Positions 257 to 17,555 of a DNA stretch of 17,653 bases are shown here, in pieces (position 1 is the first letter of the stretch; each line of letters begins with the position of its first letter). Origin of the DNA: a virus (lineage: Duplodnaviria; Heunggongvirae; Uroviricota; Caudoviricetes); the IMG/VR virus record IMGVR_UViG_2526164631_000015, positions 1-17,653 of that record, one strand, 5' to 3'. The translations under genes and the position numbers were made by a program. Under the pieces are notes generated by a model that saw only the letters and a list, made by a program, of their open reading frames with translations, did not search any database and was not told the DNA's origin.

Positions 257-284
257 AAATCAGTTCCTTTCATTCAGAAATCAG

Positions 285-306
285 TCAGGCCACCGCGGTG
301 GCCTGA
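285..306. other. 22-bp perfect palindrome (TCAGGCCACCGCGGTGGCCTGA) in the D-E intergenic spacer; strong RNA hairpin in the late transcript
   Basis: Read directly from the sequence: the segment is identical to its reverse complement. It lies between the D stop (314) and the E start (256). Confidence 0.5.
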
Positions 307-313
307 TAACGTG

Positions 314-661
314 TTACGGCAGCGCCGCGTGACTCAGGGCACTGCCGGCAAAGGCATTGGCCTTTTTGTGTTCATCCACACTTTCAGGCCAGCGGATTGC
401 CTCCGTCGCAAAGGTCCCCGACTTGTAATAGGTCAGTACCGTCTCTGTGCCTTCAAGCGGCAGTACCAGTATGCCAACCGCACTACCGGCTTTCTGTCCG
501 TCCCAGACCACCAGTTTCCCGGTGGCTTCATCCAGCATCAGGGGCGTCAGTGCCGGTGTTGCCGAGGAAATCCCGCTGCTGCCTGTGGCGGTATGAGCCG
601 GATCATTACCGGCAAAAATACGTACTTCCGCACGCTGTTCAGTGATGGTTTTCGTTACCAT
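314..661 (-). CDS. D: Head decoration protein (lambda gpD homolog)
   Basis: 115-aa ORF with an AGGAGG RBS about 10 nt upstream of ATG 659-661. Motifs DPAHTATG, TPLMLDEATGKLVVWDG, VGILV, YYKSGTF and KANAFAG match lambda gpD almost along its full length. Confidence 0.9.
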   Translation of the reverse strand: MVTKTITEQRAEVRIFAGNDPAHTATGSSGISSATPALTPLMLDEATGKLVVWDGQKAGSAVGILVLPLEGTETVLTYYKSGTFATEAIRWPESVDEHKKANAFAGSALSHAALP

Positions 662-697
662 ATTGTAAAAACCTCCTGTTGATGGTCAGCACTGACT

Positions 698-2205
698 TCA
701 TGGCATGGCCATGAGCATTTTCACGTCCGCATCACCGTCTGCTGACGTCTGTGGCACGCCACCCTGTACCGCTGCCGGTGAATGGTTCGCCATGATGCGT
801 TCAAACAGGGCGGTTGTGGATGCAGAGACCGGTTCTGCCTTACCTGATCCCGCAGCCAGCACAGCCCGGGCGCTCTCCACAGTCATTCCCGGGCAGGCAG
901 CCAGCTGTTCAGCCTGCGCCTCAGCCCCTTTTGCCTCATCCAGTGCCATGATCTGATCACGGAGTGAGGGTCCGGCATCCGCCTGCGGTGAAGCAGCCAG
1001 GATCGGGCGGGCTTTTTCCACCGTCATCTCCGGCATCGCCGCCAGCGTTGCCGCCAGTTGTTCACGACCGTTCGCTTCTTCACACGCCATAATGCGATCG
1101 GCTTCACTCTGCGTGGATGCCACCGGCTGCTGCGGTGCCGCCGCGGCCAGAATCGCCCGGGCCTGTTCAACGCTCATGCCCTGTTGTCCTGCCAGCATCG
1201 TGGCAAGCTGTTCACGTCCTTTCGCTTCCTGGCATGTCAGGATCCCCATCACTCGCTGGTTCTCCTGCGCGGCGGCTTCCGTTGCAGTTAATTGCGGCAT
1301 AGTGCCTCCTCTGACATTACTGTTCAGCGCCGTGGCCATCACACTGATGGCATCCGACGCATTGACTAATTCATCCGCCAGCCCGGCATCAATGCCGGAC
1401 TGACCTTCAAAAACGGCGGCCTCTGTTCCCGTGACGGCATCAACAGACAGACCGGTAAACATGGCCACTTTTTCGGCAAACATCCGGCGCGCCGCATCAA
1501 TGCGCTGCTGCATGTCCTGGCGAACCTCTGCCGGTAAGGCTTCAAACTGATTGCCATCCACCTTGTGCGCCCCCTGACGTAAATCAGCGTGATATCCACA
1601 CCGGCCTGCGCCAGATGACCGGCATAGCTGACATGGCTCATCATCACGCCAATGGAGCCGATACGGGATGTCTGGGTAACCAGCCGTCGGGAGCAGGCCG
1701 ACGCCAGCAGCATGGCTGCAGAACAGGCCGTGTCATTGCACAGTGCCCAGACCGGCTTCTGCTGACGGAGGCGGTAAATCATGTCAGCGCAGTCAAACGC
1801 GCCGGCGGCCTGCCCGCCCGGACTGTCAATGTCCAGCAGTATGCCCCGCACCTGGCTATCTGCCATTGCCTGCTGAAGACAGGCGACAATGCCGTCATAG
1901 CCAGTCATTCCGGAAAATGGCCGCATCCCCCCCAGCCGGTGCACCAGCGTGCCGGTCACCGGCAGTACCGCAATACCGTTCACCACCCGGTAAACACGGG
2001 CCGGTCGTTTACCTCCGGCCATGTACTCGTCCGTTTCAGCCAGCATTCCGGGAGCATCAAACTGTACCTGCTGTTGTGGTACCGAAAGACTTGATGCCCC
2101 CATCTCGCGCCCGAGCGCGCAAAAGAAAACCCGCGCATAGGCGGGCTCCAGAAGCAGCGGTTCATTGAATGCTGCGGCAATAATGTGTGAAAGATTACGT
2201 CTCAC
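698..2205 (-). pseudogene. C: Head maturation protease (S49/ClpP-like, lambda gpC homolog) with C-terminal Nu3-like scaffold region; reading frame broken near 1565-1575, giving ORFs 1366..2205 and 698..1561
   Basis: ORF 1366..2205 matches the lambda gpC N-terminal protease domain (AFNEPLLLEPAYARVFFCAL...GIAVLPV.GTLV...SGMTGY.GI...VWAL.ND...RRLVTQT...GSIGVMM...ITLIY). ORF 698..1561, in another frame, continues the gpC/Nu3 homology (VDGN...FAEKVAMFTGLSV...TEAAVF.GQ..IDAGLADELVN). The switch coincides with a run of five C on the plus strand (1570-1574). This may be a true frameshift or a homopolymer sequencing error. Confidence 0.55.
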
Positions 2206-3785
2206 GGGGTGTTGTCTCCTCTTCCGGCCTGCGACTCTCCGCTATCTGCTGCTGATACGCCTGCGCTATCCACACCGGACGTGAGAGTCCGGCTTTTTGC
2301 CGCTCAGCAGATTCCCTGACCTGCTGGCGGAAAATGTCCTGATAATCCTCGCCCATCAGCGCCAGCTCTTTCTCATACGTGCTCAGTCCGGCCTCAATGC
2401 GCATCACTGATTCCTGGACTTCCTTGAGCCCGTCAATGGCCATTCTTCCGGCTCCAATCCACTCAGCCCGTGACCAGGCTGATCGCGCCTGATAAAAATC
2501 AAAACGCGCCCGTGGCGGACGAATAATCCCCCGAAGAAGTGCCTCTTCCAGCCAGCAGGAAAACATCTGCGTGGCCAGCCGGGACGCAATAAATTTTCGT
2601 CGTCCCATAAAATAGCGCCACGACTCATTGGCGGAGGCGCGGGCACTTGAATAACTGACCTTCGAGTAATCCCGGGACAACTGTTCGTAGGAAACGCCAA
2701 GACCGGCGGCGATATACCGCAGCAGCGCCTGTTCAAGCGCCGAAAATCCATTGTCTGAATCCTGCGCGGTCTGAAGTTTCAGATCATCACCGGGGAAAAG
2801 GTGCGGAATTTTGACACCACCCAGCGTCACGCTATTCGTGTCATACCAGGTGGAGAACTTATCCAGAATATTAATAAGCGGATTATCCTTCTGCCCCTGC
2901 GGCGCACCGGCGATATATTCAAAGGCCTTTTCGGTATCAAGGTCACTTTCAATCGTCGCTGCATACATCGCCTTCACTATGGCCGACTGAAGCTGTGTTG
3001 CCTGCAGGGAATCGAGCATCTTCAGCCGTTCCATTACGCTGTAAAACTGATTGGCCCCACGGGTCTGCCCGTCCTCCACCGGCTCGAAAATATGCAGCAT
3101 GGCCGGACGCCCGGTGGAAGTTCACGCGGGATCCGTTCCCATCGTCCACTCCCGGAGACGGAAAATCATCCTCACAGATATGGTACGCAACGGCACGACC
3201 ATATCGATCGACCTCCACACCGGCCCGCAGAAAACGGTTCCCCATACCGTGTCCTGGCGTGTCCACCCGTTTCGGACTCACGGCTTTAAAACGCGTACGA
3301 AACAGTTGCGTGCTCTCCGTATCCCAGACCGGCTGCACAAAGATTTCGCCGTTAAACGCATGAACGCCCACACCTTCACGGATAAATTCCGTAAACGTGC
3401 GTTTCCCTTCCACGTCGATCTCGCCAGACATCCCTTCGGCGTATTCCGACCAGGCCGCCTCCACCTCATCGACAAAACTTTTTGCTGCAGTCTCCCGCAT
3501 CTCCAGCCAGCGCCAGTTCGGACGGTAGCTGATCAGAAACATATGCCCGACAATATGATCCTTATGCAGGGCCACCGCATTGGCCGCTATCCCGTTATTG
3601 CGCACCAGATCATCTGCACGGGCATTCCCCAGACGCAACGCGGGCAACAGGGCCGCATCGGCACTCTGCGCCGGTGGCAACCACTCCGCCATTTGCCCGC
3701 CAAATCCTGCACCGCCCCCGTTGTAGCTGAGGCTCTCCCGAAGCGGAACACCGTTCACATCAATCAGGACAGGCGTTCGTTTCAT
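2195..3785 (-). pseudogene. B: Portal protein (lambda gpB homolog), interrupted: ORFs 2949..3785 and 2195..3100 overlap in different frames
   Basis: The N-terminal ORF (MKRTPVLIDVNGVPLRE...GGGAGFGGQ...NARADDLVRNNG...HAFNGEIFVQ) and the C-terminal ORF (...HIFEPVEDGQTRGAN.FYSVME...YSSARASANESW.YFMGRRKF...MAIDGLKEVQE) each align with lambda gpB. Between about 3100 and 3160 the homology jumps frame and an in-frame TGA appears. Confidence 0.6.
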
Positions 3786-3987
3786 AACCTCACTCCCAGC
3801 GGACGACGGCGACGTCGGGTTGTCCCCAGTACCGACTCCGCATCATTGATCGCCCGGTTAAGCTCATCCAGAGAAGCCGCCGTATATTCAATTCTGCGAC
3901 CATCTTTCTGGACAGACACCACCCGTTTACCGGTAATAAATCAAGGCGCGCCTGACGCAGCGCCTGCAGTTCAGCGACTGTAACCAT
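3782..3987 (-). pseudogene. W: Head-tail joining / head completion protein (lambda gpW homolog) with an internal -1 frameshift near 3932-3940
   Basis: Frame A from ATG 3985-3987 gives MVTVAELQALRQARLDLL, like the lambda W N-terminus. A second frame gives TGKRVVSVQKDGRRIEYTAASLDELNRAINDAESVLGTTRRRRRPLGVRL, like the lambda W C-terminus ([25 protein letters not shown]...QRRRGPAGFYV), and ends in a TGA overlapping the portal ATG (ATGA). One base appears to be missing in TTATTACCGG. Confidence 0.55.
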
Positions 3988-5899
3988 TCACTCCTCCGGA
4001 CAGCTTCGCTGCCAGTTCTTTCAGGGTTGGCCGGGTCGTCTCTTCTTCCCGGGATTTTGCCAGTACAGCCAGATCAAGCTGCCAGCGTTGCACGGACACA
4101 CGTAATGCCGCGTAGGCATACACCAGGCAGTCCAGCGCTTCGTTACGCCGCTTTTTGTTATCCCACAGCAGACGCATCTTTCCTTTTTCCCACTTCTCCA
4201 CAAGCTCTTCCGCGACCAGTTGCTGCGCCTCTGTCTGCGAAAAAATCTCCGGATCATCAGGAAAACGGATGGCATACGACGTGGCTTCATCCGCAGGAGT
4301 GGGATCGGCTTTCATACGGGCATAGAGAATTTCTTTTGCGGTGTCCGTCCCCACTTCACACAGATACACGCCCCGCTGATTGCGGGTTTTCGGCATGGTG
4401 ATCACCGGCTTGCCATAGACAGATGCGCCTTTTACCGGCAGCACCCGGAAAACACCGTGTTTTTTTGACCTCTGATAGACAATTTCACCATCGATCCCCC
4501 CGGTGTCCCAGCAGACACGGGAAATGGTCATTTCGGTTCCGTCTGCATGGCAGTATTTTTTGTTGATCGCCGCATCCACACGTAACAGCGTCTCTTCCTC
4601 ATCGGGACGGCCCATAATGATGATTTTATCCACCAGAAAAGCTTCCTCTCCCGGTGCCCATCCCCAGACATACATCTCAAAACGGTTTCGCTGCGAGTCA
4701 ATGCCCGCCGTCAGATAAACCACCCGGGCAGGTACCGCCGCCGTGTAATGCACGACCTTATCCATCAGTACCTGGTGATCGAGTTTTTCGCCCACGGCTT
4801 CTTCCCAGGTCTCGCCCAGCGTGGTGTTCACAAAGGTTTTCAGGCCGTTGGGATCTTTCAGTGCATCCAGCCAGTCATAGACTATCTGTACCCAGGTGGT
4901 AAACGGACTGTACGCCGTCCAGATATGGAACGTGATGGAGCGCGGCGGCGGAATTTCATCACCCCGGGCGCTGAAAAACGTCAGACCGTCACGGGTCCAC
5001 ATGCCCGTGTTTTCACAGATCCACCGCCCGTTGCTCTGGTCCAGTTCAGACTGATGGATCACGCAGCCATGATGTTCACAGAGGTAGAAAACACTTTCGG
5101 GGCTGTCCTTCTCCCATTTAAGCCCAAAAGGCGTGGACTCATCACCAAATTTCAGATACTGCGCCTCCCCACAGTGCGGGCAGGGCACATAAAAACGCAT
5201 AAAATGCGCCGACTCGTTAGCGGCTTTTTCGATCTGGCAGGTGCCTTTGATTTTAGGCGTCGAGCCGCGAATGGATTTTGGCCACACCGACCCCTCAATA
5301 CGCTTATCCCCCAGCAGGGTTGGCGAGCCCTCTTTTTCGACATCCGGCTCGAACGAGGAAAGTTCGTCATAGCAGACCACGTCCACGGATTTTTCACGGT
5401 AGTTTTTGGCGGCAGCGCCGCCCAGGCACCAGAAACCGACGCCCGATGAAAAGCGTTTCAGCGTGAGAGTATTGTCACGATGTTTACGCCCCAGCCATGG
5501 GGAAAGGTCTTTCAGGCATGGCACGTTCCGAATCGTCGCCTCCACGTGAGACTTCATAAAATCTTCAGCGGCAGAATCCGTGGGCTGAAAAAGCAGACTG
5601 TTTCGGGATTTATGCTCAATAAAATACCCGACCACCCCCAGCAACATCTTTGTATAGCCAACACGGGCAGATTTAATCAGGTTAACCGTGCGAACCTGGT
5701 CGTTACCCATACAGTTCATAATGGCGATCTGGAATGGCAGCGTTTTCCATTCTCCCTCACCATATGAAGATTCTTTAGGCAGATAATAATTTTGATCAGC
5801 CCATTCAACTGCCGTCATTGGTACAACCCTGACCAGAGGCTGCAGCGCAACCGAAACGGCAGCCATCATATTATTCAGTTGTTGCTCTGATATATTCAT
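3971..5899 (-). CDS. A: Terminase large subunit (lambda gpA homolog)
   Basis: Long intact ORF. From the internal Met, MNISEQQLNN...TAVEWADQNYYLPKESSYGEGEWKTLPFQIAIMN...KSARVGYTKMLLGV...GGAAAKNYREKSVDVVCYDELS...GSVWPKSIRGSTPK...CPHCGE.QYLKFGD...TAYSPFTTWVQIV...NTTLGETWE...KKRRNEALDC.VYA is collinear with lambda gpA. Start chosen at ATG 5897-5899 by homology; the ORF track begins 57 nt further upstream. Confidence 0.9.
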   Translation of the reverse strand: MNISEQQLNNMMAAVSVALQPLVRVVPMTAVEWADQNYYLPKESSYGEGEWKTLPFQIAIMNCMGNDQVRTVNLIKSARVGYTKMLLGVVGYFIEHKSRNSLLFQPTDSAAEDFMKSHVEATIRNVPCLKDLSPWLGRKHRDNTLTLKRFSSGVGFWCLGGAAAKNYREKSVDVVCYDELSSFEPDVEKEGSPTLLGDKRIEGSVWPKSIRGSTPKIKGTCQIEKAANESAHFMRFYVPCPHCGEAQYLKFGDESTPFGLKWEKDSPESVFYLCEHHGCVIHQSELDQSNGRWICENTGMWTRDGLTFFSARGDEIPPPRSITFHIWTAYSPFTTWVQIVYDWLDALKDPNGLKTFVNTTLGETWEEAVGEKLDHQVLMDKVVHYTAAVPARVVYLTAGIDSQRNRFEMYVWGWAPGEEAFLVDKIIIMGRPDEEETLLRVDAAINKKYCHADGTEMTISRVCWDTGGIDGEIVYQRSKKHGVFRVLPVKGASVYGKPVITMPKTRNQRGVYLCEVGTDTAKEILYARMKADPTPADEATSYAIRFPDDPEIFSQTEAQQLVAEELVEKWEKGKMRLLWDNKKRRNEALDCLVYAYAALRVSVQRWQLDLAVLAKSREEETTRPTLKELAAKLSGGVNGYSR

Positions 5900-6380
5900 C
5901 GAGTAAATCCGGTAATTTATCCCCTGCCCGCGCACACTGATTTGCCCCCTTAGCAATAAGGGTTTTCAGATGGTCAAGATGGCGCGGTGTTAAATCAGGA
6001 AACTGTCGCTGCATGGATAAAGGGATGGAATCAAGCGTACTGGATAACGCCATTGCCAGCTTACTGAGGGCAAAAATACAGAACCCGGTGTCAATAAGTT
6101 TTCCTTTTGACACCTCATTTTTTAACTGCTGTGTAACAGCCTGTTCTGCTGTCAGTTCCCATCTGGCAATAAGCAATTTTTCCTCATAGTCGTCTTCGCT
6201 ATCGCCATCAGGCACATCGTTTTTACTTCTCCTCAGATACGATATGTAAAAATCGCGCCAGGCATCCAGATCCAGTTGCCCTCGCTTATTCGATATCGGG
6301 GCACCCGGCAATTTCTGCAATCTGCGAAGCTGGCGATCGGTCAGACTTAAATGCCTGGCAACTTCAGTCTGCGTAGCCAC
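5871..6380 (-). CDS. Terminase small subunit (Nu1-like; N-terminal HTH diverged, C-terminal half lambda Nu1-like)
   Basis: 169-aa ORF, GTG start preceded by GAGGTGAGGA. The C-terminal half (GFCIFALSKLAMALSSTLDSIPLSMQRQFPDLTPRHLDHLK...LPDLLDEYI) aligns with lambda Nu1 (AFCTFVLSRIAGEIASILDGLPLSVQRRFPELENRHVDFLK...IPGLLSEYI). Overlaps the gpA start by about 29 nt as in lambda, and the start lies about 190 bp from cosN. Confidence 0.8.
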   Translation of the reverse strand: MATQTEVARHLSLTDRQLRRLQKLPGAPISNKRGQLDLDAWRDFYISYLRRSKNDVPDGDSEDDYEEKLLIARWELTAEQAVTQQLKNEVSKGKLIDTGFCIFALSKLAMALSSTLDSIPLSMQRQFPDLTPRHLDHLKTLIAKGANQCARAGDKLPDLLDEYIRATTE

Positions 6381-6420
6381 TCCTCACCTCGCAAAAACTC
6401 TCACCTCACAATCACAACAA

Positions 6421-6526
6421 AACCGGTCATGTCCGGTTTACATGTCTGTTTTTTGTTCATGTCCGGTTCACAGAAGACCTGTTTTTATATTTTTCATATA
6501 GTTAACTTGAAGAGAAACCGGACATG
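6421..6526. repeat. cosB-like terminase-binding repeats: CATGTCCGGTT at 6428-6438 and 6458-6468 (direct) and 6516-6526 (inverted), plus a partial copy at 6441-6448
   Basis: Repeats read directly from the sequence, located between cosN and the small-terminase start, with one copy inverted as for lambda R3 versus R1/R2. Confidence 0.6.
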
Positions 6527-6563
6527 GATCCCGGAAAATTTTCATAAATAGCGAAAACCCGCG

Positions 6564-6575
6564 AGGTCGCCGCCC
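6564..6575. other. cos: cosN cohesive-end site; plus strand AGGTCGCCGCCC is the reverse complement of the lambda 12-nt cohesive end GGGCGGCGACCT
   Basis: Plus strand 6529-6575 (CCGGAAAATTTTCATAAATAGCGAAAACCCGCGAGGTCGCCGCCC) is the reverse complement of the lambda left end as I recall it. The flanking 6576-6790 resembles the lambda right end (cosQ side). Confidence 0.8.
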
Positions 6576-7086
6576 CGTAGCCTGCCGGATCGCCGGAAAG
6601 GACCCAATAAAATGATAATAATTATCATTTATATAAATACCATCACACATCCCACGTACACCATAAAACCACGACAAATAATCAATTTTGTCCAAGTCAT
6701 GCATTAATTGATCTGTGTCAACTTAACGTAAAGACATCTTAAGACAATACAAATCAGCAGCACTGAACACGGAAAAACACAATGTCATCAAAAAATAAAG
6801 CTTCCCAAACCAGATGATTAATCAAATCCATATTGCCCTTGAACGTAAGGGATCGGGTAATTTTTCGGCATGGGTTATTGAAGCCTGCAGGAGAAGGCTG
6901 GCAACAAATGCAAAGCACCTGCGCCCGGCCAGCATGAAAAATAACGAGAAATGAACGTTCGGTTACAGGAACCGGTAGCTACTGTCTTCTAACAATATTT
7001 CATCTTCATATCCGGCGAAACAAGACTTTACCCTGCAGGGATGTACTGAATAGCAACAGAGTGATAATTAACTTCTGATAAAATAA

Positions 7087-7413
7087 TCAGGGTGCTGAAG
7101 GACTAAAGATAAATGTTTTCTTCACGCCTTTACGCGGCTTGTCCTTCTCAAATCGCCATTTTGCCATCGCCTTTACAACCTGCTCATCAAACAGATGGTG
7201 CGGCTCTGAACGGATAAACTCAATTCGGGTGACAGTACCATCAGCACCAATATCAAACTTCACATCAACCCGTCCCTTTATATAATTTGCCGCGGCATAG
7301 GCCGGATATTGTGGTAATGCCTTAACCAACTGTCGAGGCATATCTGTTTTATGTTGCGTACAGCCCATAACCAAAGAAGACAACAAAATAATTAACGGAA
7401 GATTTCTTTTCAT
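7087..7413 (-). CDS. Lipoprotein with a TonB C-terminal-like domain (moron, function unknown)
   Basis: Signal peptide plus lipobox (MKRNLPLIILLSSLVMGC). Mature region PQYPAYAAANYIKGRVDVKFDIGADGTVTRIEFIRSEPHHLFDEQVVKAMAKWRFEKDKP aligns with the E. coli TonB C-terminal domain ([60 protein letters not shown]). Start taken at ATG 7411-7413; an in-frame ATG at 7426-7428 is the alternative. Confidence 0.75.
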   Translation of the reverse strand: MKRNLPLIILLSSLVMGCTQHKTDMPRQLVKALPQYPAYAAANYIKGRVDVKFDIGADGTVTRIEFIRSEPHHLFDEQVVKAMAKWRFEKDKPRKGVKKTFIFSPSAP

Positions 7414-7433
7414 TTTTATTCCCGGCATAGATA

Positions 7434-7450
7434 AGAATAAGTCTTATTCT
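7434..7450. promoter_or_regulatory. AT-rich dyad AGAATAAG-T-CTTATTCT just upstream of the TonB-C lipoprotein start, overlapping a candidate -10 (TAGAAT); Fur-box-like operator candidate
   Basis: Palindrome read directly from the sequence. Its resemblance to Fur-box hexamers (GATAAT-type) and the promoter assignment are inference. Confidence 0.35.
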
Positions 7451-8088
7451 AACAATGCAGCCCTGTCGGTCATCAATCCTCTGCTTAATGGCAATGACAA
7501 TTATCCGACTTAAATCACAAATCAGACACATGACATAACAGAGCTTGCGAGGTAACACATCGTCCGGTTTCTTCCACCATCGCACCGGACCAGCGACCAT
7601 GAGGGGACAACGCCGCGCTCCGTTAACACGGTAAACCCCGGTGTGTATCGTTTTTGATTATCCCCGCACACTCGCGCAGAGGAGTCTCCCTCTCGGGCTG
7701 TGGTCTCTGTTGATGCGGGAATACGGCGACGATACAGTGCATAGTTATGTCAGGCTAAAATGCCTTTATCAAATCTGGGTAACGCAATCTGCCATTGTTG
7801 GCTCCGGTTGTGGTGATGATGTCAAGCAAGCCCATCTTGACTATCTCAACTAGTCGATTCATGACATATGTCACATTTATACCAACCAGATCATTGCGTT
7901 GAGTTTACAACTCAATAATTCTTGGTTGGACGTCAAGTTTTGACGGTATTCGGGTGGCAGTTGATAGCAATCTTGGAACCGTCCACCTAATAGCTGCTTG
8001 TGTGGCGTTTAAATTGTGGAGTGCTCGCAACAGAACTTTTCTTTCTTGTTTGCGAGCGATGTTTAGCAACTTTTAAGAGAGTTAAGTC

Positions 8089-8319
8089 ATGGAGTTTTTG
8101 AAAGAGCATCATTTGCCTTCAATAATTTTTGGAATTTTTTCCGCCATTTTTTGGATTATTTCATGTTTTGCATCTTCCAAAGAACACCCACCAAAAACGG
8201 AACAAGGCAGTTTCTCATCACTGGGTTGTTTTAAAGCCATTGAAATACAAAGTAAATGGAATAAACGGGCTGCTTTTTGCGCAGCGTTAGCTGTTCTTGC
8301 TCAAGTATTTAGCTTTTAG
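8089..8319 (+). CDS. Small hydrophobic/membrane protein, 76 aa, function unknown (moron on the strand opposite the late genes)
   Basis: ATG start with a GAGAG motif upstream. Hydrophobic segments (LPSIIFGIFSAIFWIISCFA; AAFCAALAVLAQVFSF). AT-rich context. Followed 18 nt downstream by an intrinsic terminator. Confidence 0.5.
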   Translation: MEFLKEHHLPSIIFGIFSAIFWIISCFASSKEHPPKTEQGSFSSLGCFKAIEIQSKWNKRAAFCAALAVLAQVFSF

Positions 8320-8336
8320 TTTCAAAAGTGTAAATC

Positions 8337-8372
8337 AGAACCACTCGTATAGCGGGTGGTTCTCTGTTTTAT
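8337..8372 (+). terminator. Rho-independent terminator of the small plus-strand ORF
   Basis: Stem AGAACCACTCG / CGGGTGGTTCT (one G-U pair), loop TATAG, followed by CTGTTTTATT. Confidence 0.6.
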
Positions 8373-8435
8373 TCGTGTTGCGACTAAAACTAACTAAAAT
8401 CACGCATATGAAAGATAATGGGAAAATTATCGCTA

Positions 8436-8873
8436 TCATCGAAGGCATTGCGTCCTAATGTACTCCTGCAAGTAGTTAACCTGCGCGGTTATCCTGTCGA
8501 TTCCACTTCGGAGACGGTAATAATTGAGTTCAGCATCTGCTGTAAGTCCTGGGGTTTCTCCATTGCCCATGCCGCTGGCTCCGGTCGTTGACTTTGCACA
8601 GGTGGCGGCGACTTGCAGGCGCTTACGCCCAGCAGAAACATCAGCACGGAGACTTTCGATAGTCGCATTAGCATCAGCAAGCTCCTTTGTGTATCTGGCG
8701 TCAAGTTCTGCTACATCACGTTGCCGCTTCTGCATATCAGCGATGATGGATGTGGCTTTATCGCGCTGCTCTTTGTAGGCGATGGCGTTATCACGGTAAT
8801 GATTAACAGCCCATGAAAGGCAGACGATGAGGCAGATGACCAGAACGTAGATAATCGCGGTTACTCTGCTCAT
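8436..8873 (-). CDS. Rz: Spanin inner-membrane subunit (i-spanin) Rz
   Basis: [39 protein letters not shown]...[19 protein letters not shown] is near-identical in pattern to lambda Rz ([39 protein letters not shown]...). The ATG at 8871-8873 overlaps the R stop (ATGA). Confidence 0.9.
8489..8674 (-). CDS. Rz1: Spanin outer-membrane lipoprotein subunit (o-spanin) Rz1, embedded in the +1 frame of Rz
   Basis: Signal peptide with lipobox ([20 protein letters not shown]) followed by a Pro-rich mature part ([21 protein letters not shown]), wholly inside Rz in another frame as in lambda. Confidence 0.8.
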
Positions 8874-9367
8874 TGTTGCCCCCACAAACAGACTTCACGC
8901 TCAATCTCACGGCGAGTCATCAGCCCTTTCCATTGCTTACCGCCAGCGTATGTCCAGCGCCGTAGCTGATCACATGCGCCTTTGATATCGCCCTGGTTTA
9001 TTTTGCGAAGAAGCGTCGATGTTCTGAAATTGCCAGCGCCCACGTTGTAAACGAACGAGTAAAGAGCGCCGCGCGTTGTTTCCGGTATATCGACGTTGAT
9101 GTACGGGTTTATTTGTCTGGCGACCGTGGCAAGGTCTTTATTCAGGAGGGCTTTGCATTCTGCTTCGGTATACGTTTTACCGGGCATGATGTCTTTTCCG
9201 GTGTGTCCGTGACATACAGTCCATACGCCAACGATATCTTCGTATGGTATGTAGCTGACACCTTCCAGGCCATCGTCACCACTCGGACCAGTGATGAGCA
9301 CAGACGCTATGGCAACAGCCCCACCACCAATAGCAGCAGCAACAGCCTTGCGTAATGACGGCGACAT
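8870..9367 (-). CDS. R: SAR (signal-anchor-release) endolysin, phage lysozyme, phage-21 R type
   Basis: N-terminal SAR domain ([24 protein letters not shown]) followed by a lysozyme core ([21 protein letters not shown]...). Matches phage 21 R as recalled. Confidence 0.9.
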
Positions 9368-9573
9368 TATTCACCTCTCGCAGCCTTACGCTTATCTTCT
9401 TTAATCTTGAAATAAAGGTTTGTCAGATACGTCAGCAGGCCAAACAGCAGACTCCCCAGCACACCTATTGCCACCCACTGGGACGGAGAGACTTTGTCCA
9501 GCAGCTGCAGTAACCAGTATCCCGTCCCCACCGCTGACGTGGTGTATGACACACCTGTTGTGATTTTTTCCAT
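9367..9573 (-). CDS. S: Pinholin (phage-21 S21 type holin)
   Basis: 68-aa product with two TMDs and a charged C-terminus ([68 protein letters not shown]). Resembles S21 and sits immediately upstream of the SAR endolysin. Confidence 0.85.
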
Positions 9574-9829
9574 CTGATGTATGTCTCCGTCACCGCCGAC
9601 AGAAAATGAAAGTAAAGAAAAACAAAAAAGCCGCCAGTGTCACCCACTGACGGCCAACGCCGGGAGCCGTGATTATGGCATTCAGGCTCTGCTAAAAATG
9701 CCAGATAACATTCCGGCCAACCCCTGATTCAGGTTATAAATGACACAATATCTTGACAACATCCGTCACTGTCTGTCAGAAAATGTACTGCCAAGTATAA
9801 GTATCATGTGAAGTACATCTACCCGTTTT

Positions 9830-9866
9830 AGCCAGCGTCCTTCAGAGTGGGCGCTGGCTTTTTTTA
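9830..9866 (+). terminator. Intrinsic-terminator-like hairpin oriented on the plus strand, directly abutting the nanS-p stop codon
   Basis: Stem AGCCAGCGTCC / GGGCGCTGGCT (about 11 bp, one G-U), loop TTCAGAGT, followed by TTTTTTT on the plus strand. On the minus strand the run is A, so it does not terminate the late transcript. Confidence 0.55.
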
Positions 9867-11732
9867 TTATGCTGCCGGTGCATTTATCTCCAGCACCAGA
9901 CTTTCTATCTCAACACCATACGCTGCATTTTTGGTAATATCCGTCAGCGTCAGCGCATTCAGCCCCAGTGTCAGACTGTCTTTTATGACCTGGAATGCCG
10001 GGCCAGCCACTCCATTCAGTTTCGGAGTAACCGTGGCACTGCCGGCGGTGAACACCAGTTCCAGCGTCTGCCAGTCATTACTGTAATTCCCGAACTCGCC
10101 CAACTTTGTGTTTCCTGCTTTCTTGTGATGCATCAGATTCAGTTTGCCGTCTGTGGTCTGGGTGAAGAACGACATCAGGAACGGGTTACCAGTCCCGGTC
10201 ATCGCCACGACGTCAGGTAACGCTACATCGGTATACAGATAAATTCCCAGGCCGAACTGGTTGTTGGTCAGTGCGCCTGACAGTCGAAACTTACAGCTCA
10301 GTCTGCCACCCCGTGTCAGCAGGGAGACTGCGTCATCCACCGGATGCATCAGGGACCAGGTTTTATTGCTCTGCTTGGCGATCTTAAATACACCACCCGA
10401 CAACTGAATTCCGCCGTCCTTAATGGTCCAGCCCTGCGCAGCAGCCTCTCCGGCTGTCGGCAACAGGGAGATTGTGCGTACGGATGCATCTTCAGACGGC
10501 CCCGATGGCGTGTTGCCGCCGGGCGAGGGTTTGATTTCCGGTGCCTTACCACTGATGAAAGCTGAGGTGCGCCCGGCTGCGTTCAGAATAGCGGTTGCCA
10601 TACGATCCGGAATAATGCTCCTGCGCGCCCATGAACTGAAATGTGTCGGGCGGTTTGATGATACCTGGTTTCCATTCGTTCTCGATGCCGCACCGTAATA
10701 TCCTGATGCCGGAATATCCGGATCTTCTGCCGGTGCGTTAGTGGCGGTATTGACGCCGTTACCGTCTGTCATGAAGGGCACAAAATAAACGCCCTCACTC
10801 TCCCTGTTTTTATACCCGCCGTACACGGTGTCGTACTGGGTAGCGTATGTATTTTTCCAGTAATACGTCGTGTCACCACAAATCCACGGCACATTTACAG
10901 CACTGCCACCATGACACTGCGCGTTAAACACAGTGAGGTCAGCACGAAACTGCTTCAGCATGGCTGTAAACAGCGCAGGTTGCTGTGCGTAGGTGGCGGC
11001 GCTCATGTCAAACTCTCCCTGCATCCAGCACACCGCCAGCAACACATTTTTCGGGTTCTTCTGTAATGCAGCTTTAGTGCGCGCAATCAGGTCCTGATAT
11101 AACGGTTTACCCACCCCCCAGCGCGCCGAATCCTGGCTGGCCCCCGCGTCCGCACTGAATGTCCCCTCCGCGCCCTGGGTGAATGCCGAACCACCACGAC
11201 AGCATGGTACCAGCAGGATCCCCGCGTTATTCGGGATATACGGGAGCAGTTTTTTGGCAATATGTAAGCCCTGGCCGACACAGCCGTACTGCCCTTTGCT
11301 CAGGTCTGCCTTCGGATGATTCAGCGTACTCATATCCTGCACATCATGCAGACAGTGGTCAGCCGGGATGATGTCGTTATACGTACAACTCTCTCCACCC
11401 GGAGTTACCGTGCTGCGGCGCGCCAGCTGTTTAATGCGCGGATCCGGAGCATCGTAAGAATCCGGTAACGGAAGCCCTTCACCGTAGGCCATGCCGTTGG
11501 ACTGTCCGGCAAGCACAACCACGTAGAACCAGTCCGGCTCAGTTGCACCACTGACGACCACATCACCTTCTGCTGCAATCGCCTGCATCAGGGTATAAGG
11601 GGTTATGGCCACCGGACTACCAAACGGCTGCCAGCCCTCTTTCAGTTTATGTGTCAGCTTTTCCGCAAGATCTGACGGCGACGCCGCCCTGACAACATCA
11701 TAGTGTTTAAATGCCATGGTTCTTTCCACCAT
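9867..11732 (-). CDS. nanS: Prophage sialate O-acetylesterase (NanS-p-like; SASA/SGNH esterase domain with C-terminal extension)
   Basis: 621-aa ORF with the catalytic-serine GQSN motif (VVLAGQSNGMAYG) typical of SASA-family sialate O-acetylesterases. Position between the tRNA/toxin locus and the lysis genes matches the nanS-p (yjhS-like) gene of Stx-type phages. Confidence 0.8.
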   Translation of the reverse strand: MVERTMAFKHYDVVRAASPSDLAEKLTHKLKEGWQPFGSPVAITPYTLMQAIAAEGDVVVSGATEPDWFYVVVLAGQSNGMAYGEGLPLPDSYDAPDPRIKQLARRSTVTPGGESCTYNDIIPADHCLHDVQDMSTLNHPKADLSKGQYGCVGQGLHIAKKLLPYIPNNAGILLVPCCRGGSAFTQGAEGTFSADAGASQDSARWGVGKPLYQDLIARTKAALQKNPKNVLLAVCWMQGEFDMSAATYAQQPALFTAMLKQFRADLTVFNAQCHGGSAVNVPWICGDTTYYWKNTYATQYDTVYGGYKNRESEGVYFVPFMTDGNGVNTATNAPAEDPDIPASGYYGAASRTNGNQVSSNRPTHFSSWARRSIIPDRMATAILNAAGRTSAFISGKAPEIKPSPGGNTPSGPSEDASVRTISLLPTAGEAAAQGWTIKDGGIQLSGGVFKIAKQSNKTWSLMHPVDDAVSLLTRGGRLSCKFRLSGALTNNQFGLGIYLYTDVALPDVVAMTGTGNPFLMSFFTQTTDGKLNLMHHKKAGNTKLGEFGNYSNDWQTLELVFTAGSATVTPKLNGVAGPAFQVIKDSLTLGLNALTLTDITKNAAYGVEIESLVLEINAPAA

Positions 11733-11977
11733 CTGAAAAATAATTCTTTAAAATACCTGACATGTAATACAGAAAAAACACAAAACCATACCTTAAATAA
11801 AAACCTCATCATCAAGCAGATATGCATGGATAAACTACAAGACGAGATATAAACCACCCTGCATTTAAATAAACAATAAACAACATCAGAAAAATAATTC
11901 TGCTCTATGGTTTACAATCAAAAATATCATTTATACTTTTCAGAACATCACCAGCAAGGCATAAACAAGGAAACTAA

Positions 11978-12313
11978 ATGAAGTGGATTGTGATTGATAC
12001 AGTTATCCAGCCATCATGCGGAATATCTTTTTCAGTCATATGGAGTAAAATAAAATTAATAATCTGGTATCAATCGGATGCTTTCTTACCTCCTGAAAGT
12101 ATATTTACACTGACTCACACAGGTATCATGCTCAATAACAAAGTGCTACCTGTAACCATTTACAACGTAGTACCATTCAATAAAACATTCTGGAATTTAA
12201 TCAAAAACAGCCAGGAATGCCCTACAAATACAGATAACGTATTGAATGAATGCTTTAATAACCGTTGCACTCTGCAAATATGTCCTTATGGGCTAAAACA
12301 ACAAAGTCCATAA
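11978..12313 (+). CDS. Hypothetical protein, 111 aa, Cys-rich C-terminus; cargo gene antisense to the late operon
   Basis: ATG preceded by a strong RBS (AAGGAAACTAAATG). Candidate sigma70 promoter upstream (TTTACA ... TATACT around 11912-11940). About 33% GC. No recognisable family by eye. Confidence 0.45.
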
Positions 12314-12332
12314 GGAGTTTACTCACATCTGA

Positions 12333-12369
12333 CAAAATCAATATAAACAGCCCCTCCGGAGAGGGGCTG
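12333..12369 (-). terminator. Intrinsic-terminator-like hairpin on the minus strand (stem CAGCCCCTC / GAGGGGCTG, loop CGGA, then TTTATATTGATTTTG on the minus strand)
   Basis: GC-rich 9-bp stem with a T-rich tract on the minus strand only. Lies within the cargo block and adjacent to the 3' end of the plus-strand 111-aa ORF. Confidence 0.5.
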
Positions 12370-12745
12370 GAGAGTGGCGCTATGTGCCATTGCATGGTGC
12401 CGGGTGCCTCCCGGTGAATTCAGTACCAGCACCTGAATCCGCGATTATCCCATATACCTACTCGCTGATTGCCCCTCCGCACAGGTGGATTCACCATGCC
12501 AGTTTCTTTTAACAAACTCCCCGCAAACCAGACAACAGTCAACCGCCTGAATTGTGAAGTATTTAAAAATTTCTCCGGCTAACAGTCTGGCGTTTTCTTT
12601 TTCAGCAACGGGAAAGCAACAACCACCACACCCGCCACCAGTACACAGTCAGCCAGCACTGACATTATCCGGCTGCTGCAATGCCATTCACAAAAACAGT
12701 AAGCAATCACTTTTTACCGTAACAGGTGATAATCCAGATATGTAT

Positions 12746-13072
12746 CTACCCCAGATGAGTAATCCGAAGTTCATCCATACCACAGGTCCTGGCTATTCTG
12801 TTGTACTCCTGAACAAGAGCAAATAATTCTGAATTAGCAACCATGAACTCATCGCAAACCCTCTGTATAGCATCACTATTCAGAATAATAACGTCTCTTC
12901 CCAAAAGACGATCAGGAGTACAGAACAAAACTGTCAAACGGCTGAAGGCCTTTGCTCGTGCTGCATTGACTATATCAATACGCTGCCTAAGGATGAAACA
13001 CCCCGACGCCTCATCAATATTCACTCTACCCACACCATATGAATGATAAATATTTAATACTGAAAAAACCAT
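12746..13072 (-). CDS. Hypothetical protein (about 108 aa from ATG 13070-13072; ORF track starts at TTG 13099); coding status uncertain
   Basis: Open frame in the cargo block with no convincing RBS and no recognisable motifs. Confidence 0.25.
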   Translation of the reverse strand: MVFSVLNIYHSYGVGRVNIDEASGCFILRQRIDIVNAARAKAFSRLTVLFCTPDRLLGRDVIILNSDAIQRVCDEFMVANSELFALVQEYNRIARTCGMDELRITHLG

Positions 13073-13209
13073 TAGACCGTATAACAAACACTCAATCAAT
13101 ACTTAACAGAACTTTTATTTTTGACAAACATATAATATTTTCAACAATATACTGAGCCAGGTATATTCCAGTATAAGGCTCTGCCGGAAGAAATCTGGAA
13201 GAATGAATA

Positions 13210-13286
13210 TGGCGCGTTGTACTGGATTCGAACCAGTGACCGATTGCTTAGAAGGCAATTGCTCTGTCCGGCTGAGCTAACAACGC
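13210..13286 (-). tRNA. tRNA-Arg (anticodon UCU)
   Basis: Minus-strand sequence GCGTTGTTAGCTCAGCCGGACAGAGCAATTGCCTTCTAAGCAATCGGTCACTGGTTCGAATCCAGTACAACGCGCCA folds as a canonical cloverleaf: 7-bp acceptor, GCTC/GAGC D-stem, anticodon loop CTTCTAA, T-loop TTCGAAT, encoded CCA. Confidence 0.85.
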
Positions 13287-13298
13287 ATAATGCAGATA

Positions 13299-13375
13299 AT
13301 GGATTGCCATCGGGGACCCGGGCCCCACACAGCCAGTTTCGAAAGCTGACGCTCTCTGCCGATGAGCTAATGGCG
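13299..13375 (-). tRNA. tRNA-like element, probably degenerate tRNA-Arg (UCG-like anticodon); non-canonical T-loop and two acceptor-stem mismatches
   Basis: Minus-strand sequence CCGCCATTAGCTCATCGGCAGAGAGCGTCAGCTTTCGAAACTGGCTGTGTGGGGCCCGGGTCCCCGATGGCAATCCA has TA at positions 8-9, a GCTC/GAGC D-stem, an anticodon loop TTTCGAA and a terminal CCA. Acceptor pairs 1-72 and 2-71 are C-A mismatches and the T-loop is CCCGGGT rather than TTCRANT. Confidence 0.4.
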
Positions 13376-13383
13376 GTATGTGA

Positions 13384-13459
13384 TGGTGGCCCTTGCTGGA
13401 TTTGAACCAGCGACCTGGCGATTATGAGTCGCTCGCTCTCACCACTGAGCTAAAGGGCC
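13384..13459 (-). tRNA. tRNA with CAU anticodon, ileX/ileZ-like (tRNA-Ile2, lysidine type) or Met
   Basis: Minus-strand sequence GGCCCTTTAGCTCAGTGGTGAGAGCGAGCGACTCATAATCGCCAGGTCGCTGGTTCAAATCCAGCAAGGGCCACCA is a canonical cloverleaf. The anticodon stem-loop GCGACTCATAATCGC matches E. coli ileX as recalled. Confidence 0.85.
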
Positions 13460-13508
13460 GGTAGCAGAATAATAATGGTGCGTAATTAATTCTGCAATCC
13501 CATCCGTT

Positions 13509-14558
13509 TCAAACGATTAAATCCTGAACTTCCCTGACTGTCTGTTCAAAACGTCCTGTCTCCAGCTCAACACCAATCGCACAACGCCCCAGTGCCATCG
13601 CCGCTTTTACCGTTGAACCTGAACCCATAAAAAAATCTGCAACCAGGTCTCCCGGACGACTGCTCGCGTTGATTATCTGCTGCAGCATTTCTGCCGGTTT
13701 TTCGCACGGATGTTTCCCTGGATAGTACTGCACCGGTTTATGCGTCCAGACATCGGTGTACGGAACCTGCGCCGTCACACCGAAATACCGCCGCAAATTT
13801 TTATATTCACTCAGCAGTTCCGTATACTGCCGGTTCAGCTCACTGTATGTGCTGACCAGCTGGTGGTGTGGCTTTTCCAGTTCCCCGCGCTGATGTTTTT
13901 CTGCCGCAACACGCGCAAACAACGCCTGCAATTTGTTGTAATTACCCTCGTTCGGTAACTGCCACTGACTGGTACCAAACCAGTGCGAAGCCATGTTTTT
14001 CTTTCCGGTGGCTTCCGCTATCTGTTTTGACGTTATTCCCAGTGATTTACGCGCATCACGAAAGTAAGAAATCAGCGGGGCCATGACGTGCTGTTTTAGC
14101 TCGCGCCCCTGTGCCACATAGCCATCATCTTTCGGGCGATACGGTCCCTGATAATGTTCTGCAAACAGAATGCGCTCTGTTGCCGGAAAATACGCCCGCA
14201 GACTTTCCTTATTGCACCCGTTCCAGCGTCCGGACGGCTTCGCCCAGATAATGTGGTTCAGCACATTAAAGCGCTCACGCATCATGATTTCGGTGTCAGA
14301 TGCCAGGCGATGACCACAGAACAGGTAAAGACTTCCGGCAGGCTTCAGTACCCGCCAGAACTGCGCCAGACACTGGTCCAGCCATTTCAGGTAATCATCG
14401 TCGCCCTCCCACTGGTTATCCCAGCCCTCGGGCTTCACTTTAAAGTATGGCGGGTCTGTGACTATCAGATCGACAGAGTTTTCCGGTAAGGTCTGGATAA
14501 ATTCCAGGCAATCAGCGTTGATTAACTCACAACTGGATATTTTTACAGTATTAATCAT
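13509..14558 (-). CDS. DNA methyltransferase, beta-class amino-MTase (N6-adenine or N4-cytosine); orphan, no cognate endonuclease in the window
   Basis: 349-aa ORF with motif IV DPPY near the N-terminus (LIVTDPPYF) and motif I FxGxG near the C-terminus (DFFMGSGSTV), the circularly permuted order of beta-class MTases. Confidence 0.85.
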   Translation of the reverse strand: MINTVKISSCELINADCLEFIQTLPENSVDLIVTDPPYFKVKPEGWDNQWEGDDDYLKWLDQCLAQFWRVLKPAGSLYLFCGHRLASDTEIMMRERFNVLNHIIWAKPSGRWNGCNKESLRAYFPATERILFAEHYQGPYRPKDDGYVAQGRELKQHVMAPLISYFRDARKSLGITSKQIAEATGKKNMASHWFGTSQWQLPNEGNYNKLQALFARVAAEKHQRGELEKPHHQLVSTYSELNRQYTELLSEYKNLRRYFGVTAQVPYTDVWTHKPVQYYPGKHPCEKPAEMLQQIINASSRPGDLVADFFMGSGSTVKAAMALGRCAIGVELETGRFEQTVREVQDLIV

Positions 14559-14708
14559 AGATCAATAAGCACTTCTCTGATAGGCTCATACCGCTTTTGC
14601 GCAAAGCAGATGGGCCTGAGGTTTGCTTGTGACCCCAACGCATGAGCAGATGGCTGGCAGGTGCCGCTAACACCCACCAGCCGCCCATTACCACAAATTA
14701 AAAAGCCT

Positions 14709-14918
14709 TCACTGCGGAAGGCGTCTGTAACAACCGAACTGATAATCTGCCAGACCCGCCATAACAAGCTGGGTCAGTATTAACTGGCAGCGTTCGCGTG
14801 AAAGGTAAGTATTCTGCGCAATTTCCCCGACGGTCGCCGGTTCGGTGACGCTTAATTCATTAAACACCACTCTGGCGGTTTCGGTCATATCCTGCTGTTT
14901 TAGCATGCCTTTTTCCAT
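14709..14918 (-). CDS. Small hypothetical protein (about 65-70 aa); start uncertain (ORF track extends to 15029)
   Basis: Open frame immediately downstream of the tR'-like terminator. Internal ATGs at 14916-14918 and 14904-14906 carry weak to moderate RBS (AAAGG); the 15029 ATG abuts the terminator T-tract with no RBS. Confidence 0.35.
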   Translation of the reverse strand: MEKGMLKQQDMTETARVVFNELSVTEPATVGEIAQNTYLSRERCQLILTQLVMAGLADYQFGCYRRLPQ

Positions 14919-15029
14919 TTTCCGGTTAACGTGACATACCAATAACTCTTGTCGAAAAAGCCAGCAAGTTGAAAGACCGGTATTAGCAACCACCAGCGCG
15001 TTTAACGCCCCGTGCCGTTTTTCAGTCAT

Positions 15030-15051
15030 AAAAAAACCCGCAAAAAGCGGG
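15030..15051 (-). terminator. Intrinsic terminator on the minus strand about 80 bp downstream of the Q-like gene (tR'-like)
   Basis: Minus-strand RNA GCCCGC-UUUUU-GCGGG followed by U7. The position mirrors the lambdoid Q-pR'-tR' arrangement. Confidence 0.6.
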
Positions 15052-15130
15052 CTCTTTCAAATGTCCATGTCTGCTATTCGCCTCGCGGTACAGCTTTGCT
15101 AAGCTTACCGGAATTGAAGCAGTTTTTACG

Positions 15131-15697
15131 TCAAAAAGCAATAACTTTTTTCTCTATACCAAAAGCCATAACCATTGGTTTGTACAAAATAAATTCTGCC
15201 ACCTTTAGCCAATGCTCAATGCGTCTTTCACAGGTTCTTAAACTCCATTCCGGATGTGCATCATTCAGCAGTTCAGCCATTTTGCGCTTAGTCATCCCCC
15301 GCCCCACATAACGCTGACTCAGAACATTGAGCAGCCCGGGATAACCTGCCAGTACTTCACCAATAACCCTGTCGATTATTAACGCCTCTGAATCGGTACA
15401 ATGTGCCAGCCAGCTTTTTTGATTGCCGTTGATCATATCCCGCAAAAAAGCCTCAAGTTCAGGTTTGTCCAGACCCGCTTTTTTCATCCTCCGGAGCGCC
15501 TCGTTAATTGCCGTTTTTGTCAGCTTTTTAGAGGTCAGTAATTGGTTGAACATATTTCCCGTCTTACCGTCGCCAATATACGACCAACGCCCCCACATAC
15601 GCAGTTTCCCCTGGATCCAGACACTTTCCAGCGTTTTCAGGCGTAAATGCTCACCGCTTTTGCCTGTAATTTCCGGGTATATCATATTTATGCTCAC
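15131..15697 (-). CDS. Putative late-gene antiterminator (Q-like), assigned mainly by synteny
   Basis: 188-aa ORF immediately downstream of rusA and upstream of a short terminated leader, as for lambdoid Q genes. Contains a W-G-x-W motif region (RMWGRWS) reminiscent of some Q families. Start may be GTG 15695-15697 or ATG 15683-15685. Confidence 0.5.
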   Translation of the reverse strand: MSINMIYPEITGKSGEHLRLKTLESVWIQGKLRMWGRWSYIGDGKTGNMFNQLLTSKKLTKTAINEALRRMKKAGLDKPELEAFLRDMINGNQKSWLAHCTDSEALIIDRVIGEVLAGYPGLLNVLSQRYVGRGMTKRKMAELLNDAHPEWSLRTCERRIEHWLKVAEFILYKPMVMAFGIEKKVIAF

Positions 15698-17043: not shown

Positions 17044-17116
17044 GGATTCACGGCCCGGTTTTAGCACCACCAGCCCAAGTTCCGGTACCGGAACAGGTCG
17101 AAGTAATACCCGCACG

Positions 17117-17389: not shown

Positions 17390-17459
17390 CTGTTTTCTCT
17401 GCTGGCGCAGCAGGTGTCAGGTGTTCAGGCTGACGTGCGAATTGTAAACCAGAATGCCA

Positions 17460-17487
17460 GGAAAAACAAAACCCGCCGAAGCGGGTT
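17460..17487 (-). terminator. Intrinsic terminator on the minus strand (stem AACCCGC / GCGGGTT, loop TTCG, then TTTTGTTTTT)
   Basis: Read directly from the sequence. Separates the 3' end of an upstream gene from the nin-like genes, analogous to the tR2-type terminators of lambdoid phages. Confidence 0.6.
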
Positions 17488-17555
17488 AAGTGCGGGTGCG
17501 TTGAGGATGCCTGACTCATCAGAGGTGGCGAGGGATTTCTCCCTCGCCTGGTCTC

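Follow-up and report, generated by a model that had tools for sequence, protein, structure and literature searches.

A small gene on the plus strand of a lambda-like Escherichia coli prophage, whose late genes are on the minus strand, lies between a TonB_C-family gene and the gene for an Rz-type lysis protein. The prophage is contained in IMG/VR virus record IMGVR_UViG_2526164631_000015, of which we analyzed positions 1 to 17,653 (17,653 nucleotides, nt; called the window below). On one side of the small gene is the dead 5' end of a small-terminase gene (terS), and on the other side is an intrinsic terminator (Table 1). Together these parts form a mosaic cassette, which in our judgment is probably an ordinary but genuine moron-type accessory element with this anatomy. 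A preliminary description of the locus had proposed a 76-residue open reading frame (ORF) with two hydrophobic segments, positioned between the TonB-C and Rz genes on the strand opposite the late genes, within an AT-rich module closed by a clean intrinsic terminator. These features were confirmed. The ORF begins with ATG, the G+C fraction is 0.365-0.41 across 7900-8499 as compared with 0.48-0.535 in the lysis genes and about 0.52 in the flanks, and the terminator consists of a GC-rich hairpin of 12 pairs (-18.5 kcal/mol, z = -6.4) and a T tract.

The 76-residue protein has hydrophobic stretches at about residues 9-29 and 59-76 (Kyte-Doolittle), and its AlphaFold2 model is a helical hairpin with helices at residues 9-27 and 44-75 and a predicted local distance difference test (pLDDT) score of 77. 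The loop contains six lysines or arginines versus three glutamates, for a net charge of +3. By the positive-inside rule, this basic loop would be cytoplasmic and both the N and C termini would be periplasmic. The preliminary description held that the protein matches nothing, a claim overturned by the finding of homologs and by a match to the phrog_14357 profile (PHROGs v4; E = 1.3e-6, residues 3-73 versus profile positions 10-87 of 90). The same profile matched 16 of 20 relatives, the best with an E-value of 1.9e-32. Judged by this nearly full-length match, the window protein is a member of phrog_14357, a family of uncharacterized two-helix membrane proteins of 75-105 residues that has no described function or structure, so the assignment provides a label only.

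An exhaustive HMMER search identified 22 representative clusters at E<1e-3, nearly all with lengths of 75-99 residues; three of the 22 were short stretches within much longer proteins. An indexed profile search identified 34 proteins from Enterobacterales, Legionellales, Pseudomonas, Methylobacterium, and Bradyrhizobium, and the 90%-identity cluster of the small protein is present on 586 contigs. No relatives were found by tblastn of the small protein against 50,697 phage records or by a pattern scan of species-representative genomes, and a literature search found no account of the small gene or of terS relics at its site. In two family alignments (A4 and A6), a hydrophobic helix with the motif S..(F/A)G..SA..W..S is followed by a variable basic loop and then by a second helix with the motif Q.KWN.RAA..AA.A...Q. 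Trp22, Gln54, Asn58, Ala61/Ala62, and Gln72 are invariant or near-invariant in both alignments, and the protein may pack via its Gly/Ser/Ala faces together with Trp22, Gln54, Asn58, and Gln72. The ratio of nonsynonymous to synonymous substitution rates (dN/dS) was 0.19 for the window versus Citrobacter genes and 0.057 for the Pantoea versus Hafnia genes, with changes clustered at third codon positions. By these sequence comparisons, the small gene is real, conserved, and under purifying selection. One apparent 74-residue variant of the protein (P0003) was discarded as a frameshifted copy in a low-quality E. coli assembly, GCA_900448305.1. The same prophage has nearly every gene fragmented in this assembly, which looks like the result of assembly indel errors rather than biology.

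The region upstream of the small gene, on the late strand, is homologous to the first ~95 codons of Terminase_2 terS genes from enterobacterial prophages. Using the intact Citrobacter TerS protein as a query, tblastn aligned this region with 55% identity over 82 residues, one stop, and an E-value of 1e-21; its minus-strand translation reads ...LNATQAAIR...DVQPRIIEL*TQRNDLVGINVTYVMNRLVEI... Against the Terminase_2 profile, the conceptual translation scored 21.4 bits (E = 4e-4), under the 26.1-bit cut-off, and no intact frame above the gathering cut-off was found. Because the start is lost and the frame is broken by indels and an in-frame TAA, yet homology to terS is clear, we consider the region to be a pseudogene relic. 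Annotated terS genes in 196 other E. coli genomes have 70-74% nucleotide identity to the relic, and the relic itself is confined to the same 11 E. coli genomes as the ORF. An apparent occurrence in 3360 E. coli genomes was rejected, as those matches were to the Rz end and the left flank. In phage P22, the non-coding interval that separates orf80 from orf25 shares 83% identity with the relic and contains the same TAA. The P22-pbi sequence has a Terminase_2 terS 5' relic with a GTG start at 704-981 (minus strand) and, divergent from it at about 1016-1279 (plus strand), an unannotated 87-residue ORF (MSDIEQKIAHLEDII...) in the slot of the small gene.

The relationship between the small gene and terS was evident in other prophages. 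Homologs are present in Citrobacter, Yersinia, Pantoea, and Hafnia prophages, in each case beyond the lysis genes and oriented oppositely to the late genes, and the homolog directly follows Rz in Yersinia and Hafnia. The closest homolog (P0002, 74% identity), from a Citrobacter sedlakii prophage, is encoded divergently from an intact Terminase_2 terS gene (Pfam E-value 7.7e-40), with 26 nt between it and the terS start, and the DNA alignment of the window with the Citrobacter locus runs uninterrupted from the small ORF into terS. An intact terS partner in the same arrangement was also found on an IMG metagenome contig. Decayed terS 5' stubs of unequal length were found in Pantoea (26 codons), Hafnia (about 112 codons with stops), and the window; almost no stub is left in Yersinia. 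With the exception of Yersinia, the gene in relatives is back to back (19-26 nt) with the start of terS or a terS relic. Judged from these alignments, divergent pairing of the small gene with the Terminase_2 terS start is ancestral; two loci retain an intact terS, and four have a decayed one. The copy in the window is truncated and interrupted, and the working small terminase of the prophage is of the Nu1 type.

More distant relatives occupy different settings. The Pseudomonas homolog lies in a prophage early region, on the opposite strand to all of its neighbors. An accessory gene expressed in the lysogen would be expected to stand alone and on the opposite strand in this persistent way. In the Yersinia enterocolitica prophage, where the terS relic is nearly gone, an AT-rich stretch upstream of the homolog (4850-4960 of that locus) contains repeated ATTGATAAT / TATCAATAAT-like motifs and a good sigma-70-like site, TTGATA-17-TTTATT. 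In an integrase-bearing element (L024), the gene for family member P0032 (5001-5252) is ~650 bp upstream of, and on the same strand as, SAVED-domain and ThiF-like genes that form a set resembling a cyclic-oligonucleotide-based antiphage signaling system (CBASS; genes at 5906-10252), a closeness that may be coincidence.

The limits of the cassette were set by comparison with a collinear prophage (L022) of E. coli MDP9-27, which aligns with 94-98% identity to window positions 7563-7770 and 8443-8812. Because this alignment covers both flanks and breaks between them, we place the cassette at 7771-8442; at this site, the MDP9-27 prophage has a GIY-YIG nuclease gene instead. The ORF block was found in just 11 of 5426 complete E. 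coli genomes, and window positions 7600-8500 are 100% identical in E. coli O127:H6 E2348/69 and five further complete genomes. All ten IMG/VR contigs with the family locus hold the same E. coli cassette. Among the E. coli copies, 11 of 13 could be compared base by base, and these had zero to two differences inside the cassette, with more differences in the flanks; strain Z1323CEC0015, for example, has 14 differences in the flanks and an ORF that is 100% identical. The carriers are unrelated, having come from human, pig, chicken, and dog hosts, and their flanks differ. The cassette is always inside the same ~3-kb block (window 6529-9600), beside which the terminase genes vary.

A Shine-Dalgarno-like sequence precedes the ATG, and GGAG or GGA is found at the same spot in the Citrobacter, Pantoea, and Hafnia loci. 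With so little space between the two start codons, the promoter would have to be located within the terS relic. The best sigma-70-like site in the cassette (Table 1) had a position-weight score of 6.7, at the 99.9th percentile of plus-strand positions, and was missed by a consensus scan. Outside the cassette, in the unannotated left flank, a strong plus-strand site (TTGATG-17-TACAGT, 7710-7738) ranks among the top four on that strand of the window. We rejected this site as the promoter of the small gene, as it is outside the cassette and its key -35 and -10 bases are lost in Z1323CEC0015 despite the intact ORF.

Morons (Juhala et al. 2000; Cumby et al. 2012) are add-on DNA with deviant GC content and their own promoter and terminator, and are expressed from the prophage (PMC3594210). 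The moron layout suggested in the preliminary description stood in most respects. First, the cassette is extra DNA without a counterpart in collinear relatives. Second, its base composition is deviant, being AT-rich. Third, it contains a real, conserved gene that runs counter to the late genes. Fourth, it has its own terminator. The palindromic operators that were also part of the proposed layout did not stand, as discussed below. Based upon these features, we propose that the cassette occupies a variable slot between the lysis and packaging genes of the lambda-like prophage and would have three parts: the dead 5' end of a Terminase_2 terS gene on the late strand; an intact, divergent gene for a predicted inner-membrane hairpin, about 27 nt from the relic's lost start (19-26 nt in relatives); and a rho-independent terminator that would end the small-gene transcript before it could run antisense into Rz. 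The small gene would be transcribed in the lysogen, and during lytic growth antisense, Q-antiterminated late transcription would shut it down.

Other observations weigh against the proposal that the cassette is a moron. With respect to the promoter, the consensus scan found no good sigma-70 site ahead of the ORF; the top-scoring site within the cassette is weak, and its -10 element is not conserved, being TAAATC in four of seven aligned relatives and CAAATC or CAAGTC in the other three, with the final T kept in none; and the strongest nearby site is the one outside the cassette, mutated in a strain in which the ORF is kept at 100%. A conserved 90-nt block at the 5' end of terS is ~79% identical in the window to the consensus of the relatives (a count of aligned columns), and because of this drift a promoter embedded in the block could be damaged in the window. 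The terminator is not conserved after homologs; another terminator is present in Pantoea, and no terminator follows the remaining homologs. Finally, the protein has no match to a characterized exclusion, defense, holin, or toxin family (Pfam, NCBIfam, PADLOC, PDB, and BLASTP against the holin), and a Foldseek search with the AlphaFold2 model was uninformative (best E-values of 0.9 and 1.6 in BFVD and PDB), as expected for a bare helical hairpin.

Some of these points would also fit a silent leftover, in which the cassette is debris of a Terminase_2 packaging module replaced by lambda-type Nu1/A genes. In that case, the small gene would be intact merely as a result of the recency of this event and would no longer be expressed, its promoter having decayed along with terS. 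The lack of a convincing promoter agrees with this explanation, as does the state of the relic, which is more decayed than those of Pantoea or P22, having lost its start and retained about 79% identity to the conserved block. The close similarity of the compared E. coli copies is also in its favor, because zero to two differences represent too little time for selection to be visible among them. By contrast, the ORF, Shine-Dalgarno site, and strong terminator are all intact, and the dN/dS value versus Citrobacter is 0.19. The cassette has also spread over unrelated human, pig, chicken, and dog strains with differing flanks, and pairs of a relic and the gene persist in at least three other lineages. 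We therefore consider a silent leftover unlikely.

If the cassette is a moron that is expressed in the lysogen, then what might its product do? Our best guess, which is tentative and which we would not call probable, is a membrane-level benefit to the prophage, such as preventing superinfecting phages from delivering their DNA, as HK97 gp15 and T4 Imm do. The assignment is a guess by analogy, because neither a characterized family nor a fold was matched. In Pfam, no family was significant for the query or for 20 relatives, and there was no match to Lambda_Bor, YebO/HK97 gp15, or T4 Imm (E<=10 for the query, E<=0.1 for the relatives). Searches of Pfam, NCBIfam, and PADLOC with the relatives gave only noise from the hydrophobic segments, no PADLOC-DB 2.0 model matched any of 20 family members, and a PDB profile search gave no hits.

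Three known proteins provide points of comparison. Lambda bor is expressed in the lysogen from a site just downstream of Rz and encodes a small outer-membrane lipoprotein that is dispensable for phage growth. Like bor, the window gene is in the lambdoid slot between the lysis and packaging genes, is opposite to the late operon, and encodes a small envelope protein; unlike Bor, the window protein has no lipobox, is predicted to be a two-helix inner-membrane hairpin, and belongs to another family. T4 Imm, an 83-residue membrane protein of a virulent phage, confers immunity by blocking DNA injection and is made early in infection. It resembles the window protein in size and predicted two-segment membrane layout, but the two have no detectable homology, and imm is an early-infection gene rather than a prophage-expressed one. 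HK97 gp15 is a YebO-like inner-membrane moron product that blocks DNA entry, and both its expression and exclusion have been demonstrated (PMC3594210). The shared features here are a small predicted inner-membrane protein and an add-on cassette with deviant GC content and its own terminator in a lambdoid prophage. The differences are that the window protein has no sequence kinship to gp15 (no YebO match), that gp15 is encoded in the tail operon, and that the window gene is known from sequence alone.

Two other roles for the protein seem improbable to us, and about equally so. One is a role in the lytic cycle, with the protein modulating the class II holin, endolysin, or spanin system or coupling lysis to packaging. 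The gene is in the region beyond an Rz gene in five enteric lineages, in prophages with a Phage_holin_2_1 holin in the lysis cassette, and the size and two-helix layout of its product resemble those of class II holins. However, the gene is opposite to the late operon, so that late transcription is antisense to it; the protein gave no BLASTP alignment with the window's holin and no match to any holin family in Pfam; and homologs are far from lysis genes in Pseudomonas, Methylobacterium, and the L024 element. The other is a small membrane-damaging toxin, either an abortive-infection effector or a type I toxin, held in check by the antisense late transcript or another RNA. A small hydrophobic hairpin would suit such a toxin, the conserved polar residues Gln54, Asn58, and Gln72 might form the lining of a pore, the layout itself entails convergent antisense transcription across the gene, and one relative is near the SAVED/ThiF genes of the CBASS-like set. 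A faint match to NF033631 SLATT_5 (E = 0.058) was also found for one of 20 relatives, but it is within noise and no SLATT family in Pfam was matched. Apart from the PADLOC result for the 20 relatives, it also counts against a toxin that no conserved partner gene was found, that Rfam detected no antitoxin RNA or other element in the cassette (whole window at the gathering threshold, 7400-8500 at E<=1), and that family members are usually encoded by lone genes among ordinary phage genes.

The preliminary description also noted two palindromes upstream of the ORF, which it took as candidate operators. Both exist, but each lies 9 nt to the right of the positions given there (7853-7864 and 7890-7906), and the second, given as TTGAGT-N5-ACTCAA, is better described as having 7-bp arms and a 3-nt loop. 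Neither behaves as an operator would. First, the frequency of such elements is at chance level: the window contains four perfect 12-bp palindromes, as compared with 4.4 +/- 2.0 expected from first-order Markov simulations, and seven 6-N5-6 repeats, as compared with 4.8 +/- 2.3. Second, both palindromes are within the terS pseudogene, 174-227 nt before the ATG, and are former codons; the relic TAA (7905-7907) is the center of the second. Third, neither site is palindromic in the intact Citrobacter terS gene that flanks the closest homolog. The counterpart of the first palindrome is GCAACTTATGTACTG in Citrobacter and TGACACATGTCA in P22, whose relic has an imperfect first palindrome and has lost the second. 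Fourth, no -35/-10 pair passed the consensus scan at 7862-7915, where position-weight scores were 5.0-5.6 with key -10 bases missing, and no convincing sigma-70 promoter adjoins. From their location in decaying coding sequence and the Citrobacter and P22 counterparts, we therefore conclude that the palindromes are incidental features of the terS pseudogene and reject the operator idea. It follows that a regulated promoter-operator-ORF-terminator unit, with repressor operators acting on a small-gene promoter, is very improbable; both palindromes are upstream of the ORF, the second tips an unusually stable hairpin (z about -4), and 7771-8088 is mildly enriched in inverted repeats that have 6-bp arms (four independent ones versus about 1.5 expected), but the cassette also has no repressor-type gene.

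The hairpin tipped by the second palindrome is a 48-nt imperfect inverted repeat (7882-7929) with folding energies of -17 and -20.5 kcal/mol on the two strands (z = -4.0 and -4.35). It is not a terminator, because no T tract follows it. The Citrobacter and P22 counterparts have z values of -0.5 and -0.8, limiting the fold to the window lineage.

The first 30 codons of four intact terS genes encode an identical amino acid sequence, and their synonymous divergence is 0.11-0.16, as compared with 0.48-0.75 in the rest of the gene. The corresponding ~90-nt block (Table 1) has hardly changed in the relics of Pantoea and P22. The neighbor that starts 19-28 nt from this block varies: two very different versions of the phrog_14357 protein with 37% identity, a YodC-family gene, a 182-residue protein in BL21, and the unannotated 87-residue ORF in P22. 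The arrangement looks like a cargo slot beside a terS start that is conserved at the DNA level, and the block could be conserved because a divergent promoter is embedded in it, because it is recognized for packaging, or because crossovers are favored there. A more specific model, which is speculative and in our view rather doubtful, is that the first ~90 nt of terS act as a DNA-level dock containing a divergent promoter or another cis element for a back-to-back cargo gene. If so, phages that have exchanged their packaging module would keep a dead terS stub because the cargo needs it, as in the window, Pantoea, Hafnia, and P22; the window cassette would be one case of a general site for exchangeable cargo; and late antisense transcription would switch the cargo off in lytic growth. 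The promoter version of this model is weakened for the window copy, because the block has drifted to about 79% identity there.

Morons are a main route by which prophages alter their hosts, and among moron products small membrane proteins are the class with the poorest annotation. A hypothetical protein of the reference enteropathogenic E. coli (EPEC) strain E2348/69 now has a family, evidence of selection, a predicted topology, and a defined cassette suited to clean deletion, and the palindromic operators have been removed as a false lead. A general cargo slot at the conserved terS start, if there is one, would aid the reading of prophage mosaics. If the protein does act in superinfection exclusion, it would represent a new family among inner-membrane exclusion proteins, of which few are known.

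Table 1. Features of the cassette and its surroundings. Coordinates are window positions unless another locus is named.
Feature	Position	Strand	Remarks
Mosaic cassette (terS relic, small ORF, terminator)	7771..8442		672 bp
Gene for 76-residue two-helix membrane protein, phrog_14357 family	8089..8319	+	ATG start; RefSeq WP_157778920 'hypothetical protein'
Shine-Dalgarno-like AAGAGAG	8075..8081	+	7 nt before ATG; read from sequence
Best sigma-70-like site in cassette, CTAATA-17-TAAATT	7987..8015	+	Weak candidate promoter; position-weight scan
Intrinsic terminator	8337..8372	+	12-pair stem, 3-nt loop, then CTGTTTTATT; hairpin 8337-8363
Terminase_2 (PF03592) terS pseudogene relic, 5' ~95 codons	7776..8061	-	Start lost (about 8059-8061); indels; in-frame TAA 7905-7907
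Conserved terS 5' block	L003 5885-5974; L025 4892-4981; L027 2179-2268; L028 2162-2251	-	Decayed counterpart at window 7972-8061
Palindrome 1, TGACATATGTCA	7862..7873		12-bp perfect; former relic codons V-T-Y-V-M
Palindrome 2, TTGAGTT-TAC-AACTCAA	7899..7915		Contains relic TAA stop; tip of imperfect hairpin 7882-7929
Nu1-type small terminase and large terminase	near 5850-6400 (Nu1-type gene)	-	Working small terminase of the prophage is the Nu1-type gene
TonB_C-family gene	7087-7428	-	Late gene
Rz-type lysis protein	8436-8885	-	Late gene
Lysozyme RrrD	8870-9367	-	Late gene
Class II holin	9367-9573	-	Late gene

Several further features of the prophage were noted. The E2348/69 prophage (L001) is near-identical to that of the window, apart from IS200C and ISEc13 at its positions 11134-13103, between the holin gene and a SASA esterase gene; these elements are not in the window, where the corresponding point is about 9630, so the window derives from a different carrier strain. 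An Rfam match to the STnc100 small RNA at window 12339-12528 (minus strand; 123.6 bits, gathering score 47) adjoins an IraM/PmrD-like gene at 11978-12313 (plus strand). Two prophage-borne tRNA genes (13213-13286 and 13387-13459, minus strand) are downstream of a DNA methyltransferase gene, and their counterparts in E2348/69 are annotated as tRNA-Arg and tRNA-Ile.

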